The notes under the pieces are model-generated. The model saw nothing but the letters and a program-made list of their open reading frames with translations, searched no databases and had not been told where the DNA came from. Made by a program: the position numbers and the translations under genes. Shown in pieces: positions 17,856 through 21,311 of a stretch of 64,000 bases of DNA. Position 1 is the first letter of the stretch. Each line of letters begins with the position of its first letter. Origin of the DNA: Escherichia phage vB_Eco_J-01; sequence record PQ438393.1; one strand, written 5' to 3'.

Positions 17856-18053
17856 ATGATGCTAGATCAACTGATCAATGCTCCTCGCGTAACAGTAAGT
17901 CCAAAAACATTTGCATCACTTTTAGAAGATGCTAGAGAGGTTTATAACTTTACTGAAGAAGAGCTTCCTGTTCCTGTTGAAAAAGGTTCCAGATGGTTGT
18001 TTTATGAAGGTATTATTTTTACTGAAGGGAATAATTGGAAGGAGACTAAATGA
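17856..18053 (+). CDS. hypothetical protein
   Basis: ORF track 17763..18053; ATG 17856 after AAGGAGG. Confidence 0.4.
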   Translation: MMLDQLINAPRVTVSPKTFASLLEDAREVYNFTEEELPVPVEKGSRWLFYEGIIFTEGNNWKETK

Positions 18054-19039
18054 AATACTTAGTAACAGGTGGTTTAGGCTTTATTGGAAGTGCGGTAGTT
18101 CGTTTCCTAGCTAAAAATACTAAGAATGATATTTACGTTATAGATAAATGGGGTTACGCTTCAGACCCTAGGAATTTATCAGAAACACCTAATGTAAAGT
18201 TTTGTCGTGTTGACTTGACAAATGCGCAGTTAACTGCTAAGATTGTGACAGATGTTAACCCAGATTATATAATGCATCTTGCAGCAGAAAGTCACGTAGA
18301 TAATTCAATAGCATCACCGAGTGTTTTTATAAATTCAAATATTGTTGGAACATTTAATCTTCTAGAAGCTGTTCGTTTAATGGGAGATAAATCAAATCTT
18401 AAAATGTTTCATCATATTTCAACAGATGAAGTGTATGGTGATATGGAAGAAGGGGATTATCCGTTTACAGAACAGAATCCTTATAAACCAAGTAGTCCAT
18501 ATGCTGCATCTAAAGCTGCAAGCGATCATTTGGTAAGAGCGTGGCATCGTACTTATGGTATTCCGACAGTTATAACAAATTGTTCAAATAATTTTGGAGC
18601 GTATCATCATCCAGAAAAACTAATACCTAAAACGATAACAAATATCTTGATGCATAAACCAATCCCTGTTTATGGCAATGGTCTTCAAGTAAGAGACTGG
18701 TTATACGTTGACGATCACGCAGAAGCATTACACCTAGTAGTAACTAAAGGCAAATCTGGAGAAACATATAATATTGGGAGCAGAAACCCTAGAACTAATA
18801 TTGATGTAATCTATATGATTTGTGATTATATGGATGCGGTATATCCATCTGAAACAGATGCTTGTAGCCTCATTGAGATGGTTACAGATAGGCCTGGGCA
18901 TGATTTAAGATATGAAGTCAATCCTTATAAGATTGAAAAGGAATTAGGGTGGAAAGCTAAAGGCACATTTGAAGAAAAACTTTATTCAACCATTGATTGG
19001 TATGTAGATAACAAAGAGTGGTGGGAAAATAAAGTTTAA
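18050..19039 (+). CDS. rmlB: dTDP-glucose 4,6-dehydratase
   Basis: N-terminal TGGLGFIGS Rossmann motif; YAASK catalytic YxxxK. Confidence 0.9.
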
Positions 19040-19047
19040 GGAGGAGT

Positions 19048-19917
19048 ATGAAAGGTATTATCTTAGCAGGTGGTAGTGGAACAAGACTTTACCCAGTTAC
19101 TAAAGGGGTTAGTAAACAACTATTACCAATTTACGATAAACCTATGATTTATTATCCACTCTCTGTCCTAATGCTTTCTGGAATTAGGGAAATACTAATA
19201 ATTACAACACCAGAAGATCAAATTAATTTTGTAAATCTTCTAGGTGATGGTTCTTCTTTTGGTATTTCCCTACAGTATGCAATACAGGATAGCCCAAAAG
19301 GTTTAGCAGAAGCGTTTATTATTGGTGAGAACTTTATTGGTGAAGATTCTGTAGCACTTGTGCTAGGTGATAATTTATTCTTTGGTCAGAGTTTTGGTAG
19401 CATTTTAGATTCTGCTAAAGAACATATTGAAAAGAATGGTGGAGCTAATATTTTTGGGTATCACGTAAATGATCCTGAAAGATTTGGTGTTGTTGAGTTT
19501 GATTCTGAAGGTACAGTGGTAAGTATTGAAGAAAAACCAAAAGCACCAAAAAGCAATTATGCAATTACAGGCTTGTACTTTTACGATAATTCTGTTATAC
19601 AGAAAGCTAAAAGCGTTAAGCCTTCTGCTAGAGGGGAGTTAGAGATCACAGATATAAATGAGATGTACTGGAAAGAAAAGGCTTTACGTGTCTGTAAGCT
19701 AGGAAGAGGTTTCACTTGGCTGGATACAGGAACACATGAAAGTCTTATGGAAGCATCTCAATTTGTTCATGCAATAGAAAAGCAACAAGGTATGAAGGTT
19801 GCATGCCTAGAAGAGATTGCTTTTAAAAATGAATGGATTACTTTAGACTCTGTAAAAAGTTCTGGAGAGGTTTTAAGTAAAACAGACTACGGTAAGTATT
19901 TACTTAAATTAAAATAA
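19048..19917 (+). CDS. rmlA: glucose-1-phosphate thymidylyltransferase
   Basis: [16 protein letters not shown] signature. Confidence 0.9.
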
Positions 19918-19929
19918 AGGGGGAATTAA

Positions 19930-20484
19930 ATGATTCAAGCAACAAAAATCGAAGATTTGTTGATCATTCAACCTGACGTTTACGGAGATGAACGTGGCTT
20001 TTTCTTAGAAAGTTTTAATCAGGCTTTATATGATCAATACATAGGTAAACAAAACTTTGTCCAGGATAACCACTCACGTTCTATTCGAGGAGTTCTACGT
20101 GGGCTTCATTTTCAAAAGAAAAACCCACAAGGGAAGCTAGTACGTTGTGTTCGTGGTGAAGTTTATGATGTTGCTGTAGATATTAGGGCTGGTAGTCCAA
20201 CATTTGGAGAATGGGTAGGTGTTCTTTTATCTGAAAAGAATAAAACACAATTTTGGATTCCTCCTGGTTTCGCTCATGGCTTTGTTGTGATTAGCGACAT
20301 TGCTGATTTTGAATATAAATGTACAGAATATTACGATCCGACTTCAGAGTGTAGTCTTGCGTGGAATGATCCAGATATCAATATAGATTGGGGTTTTGAT
20401 TTAATCTTTAATGATATTAATTTTAAACCTATCTTGTCACAAAAAGATCAGGAAGCCAAAACACTAAAGGAGATCATATTTTGA
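19930..20484 (+). CDS. rmlC: dTDP-4-dehydrorhamnose 3,5-epimerase
   Basis: N-terminal DERGFFLESF block; size 184 aa. Confidence 0.85.
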   Translation: MIQATKIEDLLIIQPDVYGDERGFFLESFNQALYDQYIGKQNFVQDNHSRSIRGVLRGLHFQKKNPQGKLVRCVRGEVYDVAVDIRAGSPTFGEWVGVLLSEKNKTQFWIPPGFAHGFVVISDIADFEYKCTEYYDPTSECSLAWNDPDINIDWGFDLIFNDINFKPILSQKDQEAKTLKEIIF

Positions 20485-21311
20485 CAAAATTTTTAGTCTT
20501 TGGTTCAAAAGGTCAATTAGGACAGTCTTTGGCAAAAGTTGCGCCCGAAGATGTTGTTTTGATTGAAGCAAGTGATATAGACATTACCAACTTTAAAGAT
20601 GTTATGAATAGTCTTGTACAGCACGTGCCTGATGTTGTTGTGAATTGTGCGGCTTACACGGCAGTAGATAAAGCTGAAGAAGATGTTAACACCTGTATAA
20701 ATGTTAATGCATACGGTGCAACAAACATTGCCAAAGCATGTAATGATTTACTGATACAGTTTGTACATATTTCAACAGACTATGTTTTTGATGGACATGT
20801 TGCTGGCACAGAAGAGAGTAAAACAAACCCCTTGAACACCTACGGTTACAGTAAACAATTAGGTGAAACTTTAGTACAAGCAGTTTGTCCTACAGCACTT
20901 ATTATCAGAACAGCTTCTGTTTATAGTGAATTTGGACATAACTTTTTGAAAACTATGTTGGAACGCTACAACGGTGGTCAAAAAGAATTTAATGTAGTAT
21001 GTGATCATTTATCATGTCCTACTTATGCACCTGATCTTGCAGAAACAATTTTTAAACTTGTAAAAGATGGTGTAAATAGTAAAATTGTACACTATGCAGG
21101 TGCAGATTATATTTCTTGGTATGATTTTGCACGAAAGATATTTCTTGTTATAGATTTGTCTGTTACAGTTAATCCTGTATCTGCTTCAACCTATAATTCC
21201 AAAGCAGTCAGACCAGCAACATCTTATTTAAAAACAGATCCTACTTTAAATCCGCGAAGTGTTGATAGCGGTATTGTAAGAACTTTAACTATACTTTTAA
21301 ACAAGGAGTGA
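20481..21311 (+). CDS. rmlD: dTDP-4-dehydrorhamnose reductase
   Basis: N-terminal GSKGQLG Rossmann motif; YGYSK YxxxK; TTG start. Confidence 0.8.
   Translation: MTKFLVFGSKGQLGQSLAKVAPEDVVLIEASDIDITNFKDVMNSLVQHVPDVVVNCAAYTAVDKAEEDVNTCINVNAYGATNIAKACNDLLIQFVHISTDYVFDGHVAGTEESKTNPLNTYGYSKQLGETLVQAVCPTALIIRTASVYSEFGHNFLKTMLERYNGGQKEFNVVCDHLSCPTYAPDLAETIFKLVKDGVNSKIVHYAGADYISWYDFARKIFLVIDLSVTVNPVSASTYNSKAVRPATSYLKTDPTLNPRSVDSGIVRTLTILLNKE

Follow-up and report, generated by a model that had tools for sequence, protein, structure and literature searches.

In bacteria, the four enzymes that synthesize deoxythymidine diphosphate (dTDP)-L-rhamnose are encoded by operons (rfbBDAC or rmlBDAC) in O-antigen, capsule, and cell-wall loci. 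The same four enzyme families, with the same predicted product and likewise in operon form, are encoded by Escherichia phage vB_Eco_J-01 (PQ438393.1), of which a stretch of 64,000 nucleotides (hereafter the window) was analyzed; the operon comprises rmlB, rmlA, rmlC, and rmlD (Table 1). It departs from the bacterial operons in its gene order (B-A-C-D, vs. B-D-A-C in enterobacteria), in its sequence (∼65% DNA identity to the E. coli copies), and in its position between nrdB and a glutaredoxin gene (grx), where it has no adjoining genes for a rhamnosyltransferase, flippase, or polymerase.

Glycosylation by viral enzymes is known from several other systems. Among giant viruses and chloroviruses, Mimivirus synthesizes UDP-L-rhamnose and PBCV-1 has capsid glycans, and capsid or fibrils are the proven acceptor. 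As in the phage, a donor-sugar pathway and soluble glycosyltransferases (GTs) are encoded by one virus, which would make glycosylation host-independent; in contrast to the bacterial dTDP-type pathway of the phage, those of the giant viruses and chloroviruses are of the eukaryote UDP/GDP type. The virions of mycobacteriophage Che8 are reportedly glycosylated, a result that a secondary source credits to Freeman and colleagues in 2023. The Che8-type system resembles the present one in having soluble phage GTs encoded outside the structural operon, as is the case in all Justusliebigvirus and Phapecoctavirus records, whereas mycobacteriophages have no sugar-nucleotide pathway. Temperate-phage seroconversion (GtrABC, Oac) uses membrane proteins and lipid-linked sugars to alter host surface glycans; there the alteration is phage-encoded, but the GTs of the phi92-like phages are all soluble, and the phages are virulent. 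Finally, T4 glucosylation of hydroxymethylcytosine and the clusters of C5-methyltransferase, 5mYOX, and GT genes have in common with the present system their DNA-metabolism neighbors, the R...DDD...ED signature of GT-A enzymes, and a C5-methyltransferase (bioRxiv 10.1101/2023.12.21.572611). They differ from it in that no hydroxymethylase or TET-like enzyme was found here, the parts are unclustered, the phages are restriction-sensitive, and the donor would be a dTDP-sugar.

The source phage is assigned to Justusliebigvirus (phi92-like, Stephanstirmvirinae), virulent myoviruses of ∼146 kb with E. coli as host. The rml block (3.26 kb) is 95–99.1% identical in 55 phage records, of which vB_vPM_PD06 is the closest and phi92 is 98.7% identical (gp064–067), and colinearity with those genomes extends across window positions 1–25000. 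In most of these 55 GenBank records, all four genes already have dTDP-rhamnose enzyme labels. The pathway was termed “peculiar” by Olsen et al. (2020), who suggested nucleic-acid glycosylation, and was mentioned by Maffei et al. (2021; PMC8594841); a literature search found no paper assigning a function to the phage rml genes. The rml feature is a re-discovery, previously published and unexplained. New here are the anatomy of the cassette insertion, its non-host origin, and the meaning of a deletion in phage ESCO37, as well as the place and nature of a GT cluster, the partial independence of this cluster from rml, and the down-weighting of DNA as the acceptor. Four records labeled ‘Campylobacter phage’ (A150, A145, C3, and A110a; MG065639, MG065645, MG065656, and MG065689) match the rml block at 98.8% identity and share its wider colinearity with the window; contamination or a labeling error probably explains why Campylobacter is given as their host.

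The rml operon and its insertion between nrdB and grx

Each of the four proteins scores above the NCBIfam equivalog cut-off for its enzyme, with Pfam in agreement, and the catalytic and cofactor motifs are intact. RmlB has the motifs GGxGFIG, STDEVYG, and YxxxK, and RmlA has GGSGTRL, as read from the sequence. RmlC, when aligned to the Salmonella 3,5-epimerase 1DZR (its best PDB match), keeps the catalytic His (RGLHFQ), Lys (GKLVRC), and Tyr, and scores 219 bits to this enzyme vs. 88–110 bits to the mono-epimerases NovW, EvaD, and ChmJ, which favors 3,5-epimerase activity as far as similarity goes. RmlD keeps STDYVFDG and YxxxK, and PDB RmlD homologues match it at 154 bits; its score is just 30 bits over the TIGR01214 cut-off. 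The complete pathway that a preliminary description of this DNA had recognized is thus upheld, and is functional as far as sequence can tell. In the infected cell, RmlA would join glucose-1-phosphate and dTTP, RmlB would dehydrate the product to dTDP-4-keto-6-deoxyglucose, RmlC would epimerize C3 and C5, and RmlD would reduce C4 to give dTDP-L-rhamnose; that the cassette makes this sugar nucleotide is very probable.

The rml open reading frames (ORFs) lie exactly at the coordinates at which the preliminary description had placed four contiguous genes, and are tightly packed (orfD/rmlB −4 nt, ATGA; rmlB/rmlA +8; rmlA/rmlC +12; rmlC/rmlD −4, TTGA), with a Shine-Dalgarno sequence at every rml junction. 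The translational coupling also proposed there fits this geometry, which is its sole support. Shuffled sequence yields promoter-like and terminator-like matches at least as often as the rml block does, and the guanine-plus-cytosine (GC) content of the block (0.35–0.36) is like that of the remainder of the window.

The gene order nrdA-nrdB-small ORFs-rmlB-rmlA-rmlC-rmlD-grx-small ORF-lysozyme-phoH is common to the window, phAPEC8 (Phapecoctavirus), and Klebsiella phage 05F01. In two rml-less relatives, DrSchubert (Vequintavirus) and KP13-16 (Stephanstirmvirinae), nrdB and grx are direct neighbors, separated by 3 and 13 nt, respectively. Because nrdB abuts grx in these phages, the rml operon and the small ORFs upstream of it are read as an insertion of ∼4.3 kb (window 16985–21307) into an older nrdAB-grx module. 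The placement of rml between nrdB and grx, and in a nucleotide-metabolism region, was correctly seen in the preliminary description, with the qualification that ∼1.07 kb of small ORFs part nrdB (end 16984) from rmlB. The insertion is a sufficient reason for the presence of a sugar pathway among nucleotide-metabolism genes, and this position need not imply a role in DNA metabolism.

The small ORFs between nrdB and rmlB (16984..18053) have no Pfam or PADLOC match, and orfA and orfC are absent from 05F01 and KP13-16. The window and phAPEC8 copies of OrfC share 92.6% identity, vs. 63% for the neighboring RmlB and 84% for NrdB; either the protein is very strongly constrained or its gene was recently exchanged across genera. 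It has only three relatives among 5.8 billion proteins, and its AlphaFold2 model is unusable (predicted local distance difference test, pLDDT, 43).

Conservation, origin, and natural loss of cassette genes

Between the window and the sister genome EmilieFrey (MZ501063), the four rml genes have 34 synonymous and 12 non-synonymous differences, with ratios of non-synonymous to synonymous substitution (dN/dS) of 0.04–0.23 (rmlB, 0.07). Between genera, synonymous sites are saturated and the four Rml proteins are still full length at 41–72% amino acid identity (54–72% to phAPEC8 and 41–71% to 05F01; for RmlA, 71–72% to the phAPEC8 and 05F01 copies). By these measures, all four rml genes are under purifying selection. 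RmlC homologues were found in 169 of 50,697 phage records, most of them within Stephanstirmvirinae, and the number of genomes with an intact cassette, from several genera, is well above 100.

Recent capture from an E. coli host or a prophage copy was considered and ruled out by three observations in 5426 complete E. coli genomes: the closest DNA match is ∼65% identical, the host gene order is rfbB-D-A-C rather than B-A-C-D, and none of the genomes has a match to ≥80% of the operon length. Each of the 5426 contains one or more loci of partial similarity, which is what rffG/rffH, in the enterobacterial common antigen (ECA) cluster, and rfbBA would be expected to give.

Phapecoctavirus ESCO37 is described as being without the thymidylyltransferase and dehydratase genes (PMC10269720). 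Its locus is colinear with that of phAPEC8 at ∼98.5% identity, save for a precise 1871-bp deletion of rmlB and rmlA that leaves 9 nt alone between orfC and rmlC (OM386659, 34227–34235); orfC, rmlC (187/188 residues identical to phAPEC8), rmlD (276/280), and grx are kept. Every E. coli encodes paralogues of RmlA and RmlB, namely RffH and RffG. This viable phage has thus retained exactly those two steps for which a host may have no enzyme, and dropped the two that every E. coli duplicates. Because ESCO37 lost rmlB and rmlA yet kept rmlC and rmlD, the deletion indicates that the selected trait is the finished sugar nucleotide and not a drain on dTTP.

The preliminary description had held that the pathway, by consuming dTTP, competes with DNA synthesis. 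That claim is not supported: RmlA is the only dTTP-using enzyme of the pathway, the dTDP freed on glycosyl transfer is then recycled, and ESCO37 is viable without rmlA and rmlB. Since RmlA, the sole dTTP user, is the dispensable enzyme in ESCO37, dTTP consumption is not the selected trait. The broader proposition that the operon manipulates nucleotide pools, as a sink or buffer for dTTP or glucose-1-phosphate or through a regulatory dTDP-sugar, with no glycoconjugate formed, is highly improbable. The operon does lie among genes for ribonucleotide reductase (RNR), thymidine kinase (tk), and a ThyX-like protein, probably in one transcription unit with them, but this position is accounted for by the cassette insertion; moreover, a sink would require RmlA alone, whereas all four genes are conserved, and ESCO37 dropped RmlA and RmlB while retaining RmlC and RmlD. 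Lower still is the probability that the cassette is a neutral passenger without a role in infection. KP13-16 and Vequintavirinae do without it, and half of it was lost in ESCO37, but its wide retention in intact form, dN/dS well below 1, preserved catalytic residues, and saturated synonymous sites are contrary to neutrality.

We favor a history, on these sequence comparisons a probable one, in which the cassette entered between nrdB and grx in an ancestor of part of Stephanstirmvirinae and has since been maintained by purifying selection. Because every E. coli has RffH and RffG, and a viable phage lost rmlA and rmlB only, it would be the last two steps of the pathway that matter, and the cassette would thereby free a phage of very broad host range from the ability of the host serotype to make rhamnose.

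Glycosyltransferases and the acceptor of the sugar

The preliminary description saw no glycosyltransferase near the rml genes. This holds for the window, in which none of 20 larger uncharacterized ORFs contains a GT domain, but not for the genome: the wider search for glycosyltransferases that the same description recommended located four soluble GT genes in EmilieFrey, of which the window corresponds to ∼137.3–73.3 kb. The GT region is outside the window, and its analysis refers to EmilieFrey and other relatives. The four genes are adjacent (EmilieFrey 44552–47728; bas61_0046–0049; phi92 gp164/165 region), are labeled putative glycosyltransferases or disaccharide synthases, and lie ∼26 kb past the right end of the window and ∼70 kb from rml.

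GT1 scores above the Pfam threshold for Glyco_trans_1_2. GT1 and GT2 are GT-B paralogues that are 40% identical and belong to one PHROG, whereas GT3 (a GT-A enzyme with a DDD motif) and GT4 (a small GT with a DID motif) are each in a GT PHROG of their own. All four lack transmembrane segments (highest hydrophobic 19-residue window ≤1.34), and by sequence none of them matches a solved structure or an NCBIfam family. The fold predicted for GT3, from a model of a 78%-identical proxy (pLDDT 88), is GT-A with a DxD motif. The nearest structural neighbor of this model is the viral GT STIV A197, followed by polysaccharide, teichoic-acid, lipopolysaccharide (LPS), and protein GTs, one of them the Listeria rhamnosyltransferase RmlT; the nearest viral models are those of phage proteins and a megavirus GT.

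Metagenomic relatives, phAPEC8, and KP13-16 all share the gene order GT4-GT3-GT-B-(GT-B)-small ORF-primase/helicase-DNA polymerase. The other flank of the cluster has genes for a SleB-type cell-wall hydrolase, Ter-like proteins (vWA-TerF, TelA, and TerC), a phosphoribosyltransferase (PRTase), and HAD and Macro proteins. The placement of the GT genes between a Ter-like/cell-wall-hydrolase set and primase/helicase is kept throughout Stephanstirmvirinae, rml-less KP13-16 included. In EmilieFrey, this upstream set comprises vWA-TerF-like, TelA, and TerC proteins with a ComF-like PRTase, a HAD hydrolase, and Macro proteins (418–9090 of a stretch of EmilieFrey outside the window); in relatives, the Ter-type set adds TerD and Band_7. 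The cluster is present at ≥95% identity in 55 records, equal to the count for the rml block, and at ∼75% identity in Phapecoctavirus. In the E. coli genera, rml and the GT cluster always occur together, with near-identical organism counts, and both are present in the Klebsiella branch of KP13-26, KP2025, FKP3, and phi1_175008.

One use of the sugar nucleotide would be at the cytoplasmic face of the membrane, where phage GTs or host rhamnosyltransferases would alter the LPS core, O-antigen, ECA, or another surface glycan; this could mask receptors, block superinfection, or reduce the loss of progeny on debris. Such remodeling is a possible outcome, held with little confidence. It accords with the many tail fibers and spikes by which these phages recognize surface glycans and LPS core, with the position of the GT cluster immediately downstream of the SleB-type hydrolase and the TerC, TelA, and vWA-TerF genes in EmilieFrey and metagenomic relatives, and with the LPS, teichoic-acid, and polysaccharide GTs among the neighbors of the GT3 model. 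Furthermore, dTDP-4-keto-6-deoxyglucose is an intermediate in common with ECA synthesis, which counts in favor of this alternative. Against it, there is no flippase, bactoprenol GT, or membrane-spanning GT, the hallmarks of known phage seroconversion; a virulent phage with a short cycle has little time for turnover of the surface; and no experimental hint of it was found.

Alternatively, rhamnose may be placed on phage DNA, either on hydroxymethyl-pyrimidines in the manner of T4 or post-replicatively by a methyltransferase, an oxidase, and a GT in succession, to which we assign a low probability. The gene neighborhoods are compatible with such a role, as rml is in the nrd/thy/tk block and the GTs are fixed beside primase/helicase and DNA polymerase. 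GT3 gives a sub-threshold match to Pfam TAGT (23.3 bits; gathering threshold 27.5) and a weak match to the PHROG of the T-even beta-glucosyl-HMC-alpha-glucosyltransferase (HMC, hydroxymethylcytosine), and its invariant residues R16, D64–D66, and E141–D142 agree with the R...DDD...EDY/F signature described for GT-A enzymes that modify DNA. Additionally, the window encodes a genuine C5-cytosine methyltransferase (C5-MT) and a very divergent ThyX-like protein of putative activity. The phi92-like phages are, however, ‘exceptionally susceptible’ to restriction-modification systems of types I, II, and III (PMC8594841), and a published hidden Markov model survey of DNA GT-A enzymes lists none of them. 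There is no ThyA-type hydroxymethylase, the sole thymidylate-synthase-like protein being of the divergent ThyX family, and a search of 40 large proteins from the window and EmilieFrey for a TET/5mYOX or hydroxymethylase partner found none and no Tet/JBP or 2-oxoglutarate-dependent dioxygenase domain, although small or very divergent proteins could escape it. The ThyX-like and thymidine kinase genes are also present in rml-less, GT-less Vequintavirus, the structures nearest to GT3 are not DNA GTs, and the C5-MT gene and the GT cluster are far apart. The known forms of DNA glycosylation draw on UDP-sugars and employ one GT or two rather than four, which further weighs against DNA as the acceptor.

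The ThyX-like ORF (11522–12493, +; 323 amino acids) scores 36.9 bits to Pfam Thy1 and 35.5 bits to TIGR02170 (cut-off 87.9), has the motif THR...SSR in place of RHR...S, and has no PDB sequence match. Its thymidylate-synthase label is not secure, and it is not tied to rml, since Vequintavirus has the same protein.

High sensitivity to restriction, together with the failure to find a hydroxymethylase or TET-like enzyme among the proteins searched, makes bulk DNA glycosylation unlikely, or in effect excluded. Sparse, motif-restricted rhamnosylation of phage nucleic acid would be invisible to restriction plating assays, and is improbable; it would have to obtain its hydroxymethyl acceptor from a non-canonical oxidase or the aberrant ThyX-like protein. 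If true, it would be the first deoxyhexose modification of DNA and the first to depend on a dTDP-sugar. Of the three acceptors proposed in the preliminary description (phage DNA, virion protein, and host surface), phage DNA is accordingly the least likely, on the published restriction susceptibility. We place a virion protein first, as a tentative choice, followed by the envelope or another cellular glycoconjugate, likewise doubtful, with nucleic acid last and unlikely.

The reading that we prefer is that the four soluble, cytoplasmic phage GTs encoded near primase/helicase use the dTDP-rhamnose to assemble a glycan that includes rhamnose on an acceptor other than DNA, and that this acceptor is most likely one or more virion proteins. 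The first part is, on balance, favored; the chain as a whole, in which giant viruses, chloroviruses, and mycobacteriophages serve as the analogy for a virion acceptor, is plausible at best and may well fail at its last step. In support of the analogy, domains of the GT3 family are present in hundreds of mycobacteriophages, such as Bobi gp102 (Cheoctovirus), which is at the same genome locus as the GT operon of Che8, a member of the same genus.

Several observations count against this reading. RmlD-family reductases may also yield 6-deoxy-L-talose, so dTDP-L-rhamnose is a predicted product to which dTDP-6-deoxy-L-talose is the alternative. The complete genome of KP13-16 encodes three of the GTs (42–46% identical) and no Rml homologue (best E above 0.3), the number of GT-B copies is independent of the presence of rml, and the GT sequences reveal no sugar specificity; cluster and cassette lie ∼70 kb apart. 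The placement of the cluster between the Ter-like/cell-wall-hydrolase set and the replisome is as compatible with a role in the envelope as with one in DNA. Che8 gp108–110 have no detectable similarity to GT3 (BLASTP E 0.002 or worse, all pairs), and no report of glycosylated phi92 virions was found; a cryo-EM entry for the phi92 capsid is deposited as PDB 21uy. Finally, a Ser/Asn/Thr-rich C-terminal tail of the sheath protein, considered as a glycosylation site, was rejected, as it occurs in Justusliebigvirus only and is absent from rml-positive Phapecoctavirus.

Three further propositions were discarded. GT3 is not to be equated with the Che8 virion-glycosylation enzymes, which the BLASTP comparison rules out; what is homologous at that locus is a different GT, that of the related phage Bobi. 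Strict co-occurrence of rml and GTs holds in the E. coli genera and is broken by KP13-16. The extra GT-B paralogue is not an rml-specific rhamnosyltransferase, as the rml-positive phages alia (OZ035770), KP2025, and phi1_175008 have a single GT-B. Because KP13-16 has GTs without rml, and GT-B copies do not follow rml, the GT cluster is judged older than the rml cassette and not dependent on it. On the simplest reading, which we infer from this pattern, the GTs normally use host nucleotide sugars, and the cassette was acquired later to secure one donor whatever the host's own capacity to make rhamnose.

Genomic surroundings and significance

The cassette boundaries and the other features of the window are listed in Table 1. 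For grx, ATG 21314 is probably the start rather than GTG 21308, and the EmilieFrey annotation backs this choice. A 20-nt GC-rich hairpin, AAAGGGGCGAAAGCCCCTTT, occurs on the + strand at 9150–9169, 22238–22257, and 33524–33543 (the third copy with one mismatch); each copy follows closely on a gene end, the spacing is 11–13 kb, and the number expected by chance is 0. Probably the hairpin is a terminator used repeatedly to split the rightward genes into units, one of which probably contains both rml and the endolysin gene. GC skew switches sign at ∼34 kb, with + strand genes to the left and many small − strand genes to the right, so two transcription blocks converge there.

Table 1. Features of the window, with the rml genes first (ORF, open reading frame; RNR, ribonucleotide reductase).
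Feature	Position	Strand	Evidence or remark
rmlB, dTDP-glucose 4,6-dehydratase, 329 aa	18050..19039	+	TIGR01181, 442 bits (cut-off 365); Pfam GDP_Man_Dehyd/Epimerase
rmlA, glucose-1-phosphate thymidylyltransferase, 289 aa	19048..19917	+	TIGR01207, 473 bits (cut-off 361)
rmlC, dTDP-4-dehydrorhamnose 3,5-epimerase, 184 aa	19930..20484	+	TIGR01221, 260 bits (cut-off 156)
rmlD, dTDP-4-dehydrorhamnose reductase, 276 aa, TTG start	20481..21311	+	TIGR01214, 254 bits (cut-off 224)
nrdB, left cassette boundary	15899..16984	+	NCBIfam class Ia RNR beta match
orfA, 72 aa	16984–17202	+	ORF; 84% identical in phAPEC8
orfB	17171–17377	+	ORF
orfC, 108 aa, acidic	17516–17842	+	ORF; 92.6% identical in phAPEC8
orfD (probable start), 65 aa, stop overlapping rmlB start	17856–18053	+	ORF
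Glutaredoxin (grx), right cassette boundary	21308..21574	+	Pfam Glutaredoxin, 45 bits; CPFC motif
Probable transcription unit: tk, ThyX-like, nrdA, nrdB, small ORFs, rmlBACD, grx, endolysin	9170–22257	+	Bracketing hairpins
N6 DNA methyltransferase (N6-MT)	24667–25176	+	
C5-cytosine methyltransferase (C5-MT)	30387–31376	+	
SIR2	32705–33517	+	
NADAR	58309–58860	−	

The NAD/ADP-ribose enzymes (SIR2 and NADAR) and the two DNA methyltransferases likely serve a counter-defence unrelated to rml; EmilieFrey also encodes NAMPT and phosphoribosyl pyrophosphate (PRPP) synthetase. A protein of 467 amino acids (58861–60264, −) has four CapR homology domains and a T5orf172 (GIY-YIG-like) domain, and its EmilieFrey counterpart has 325 amino acids and two CapR repeats. 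The gene is variable and belongs to the homing-endonuclease type.

The phi92-like phages have among the broadest host ranges of coliphages, and are used in therapeutic cocktails and represented in many therapy-oriented isolate collections. Natural controls for the role of the cassette exist in ESCO37, with its partial deletion, and in rml-less relatives (KP13-16). If the host envelope is remodeled, receptor masking of this kind by a virulent phage would be new. If instead virions carry a self-made rhamnose glycan, it would affect how antibodies recognize the particles, how these are cleared, and how stable they are in phage therapy, and such a coating would be the first system of its kind for a phage of Gram-negative bacteria.

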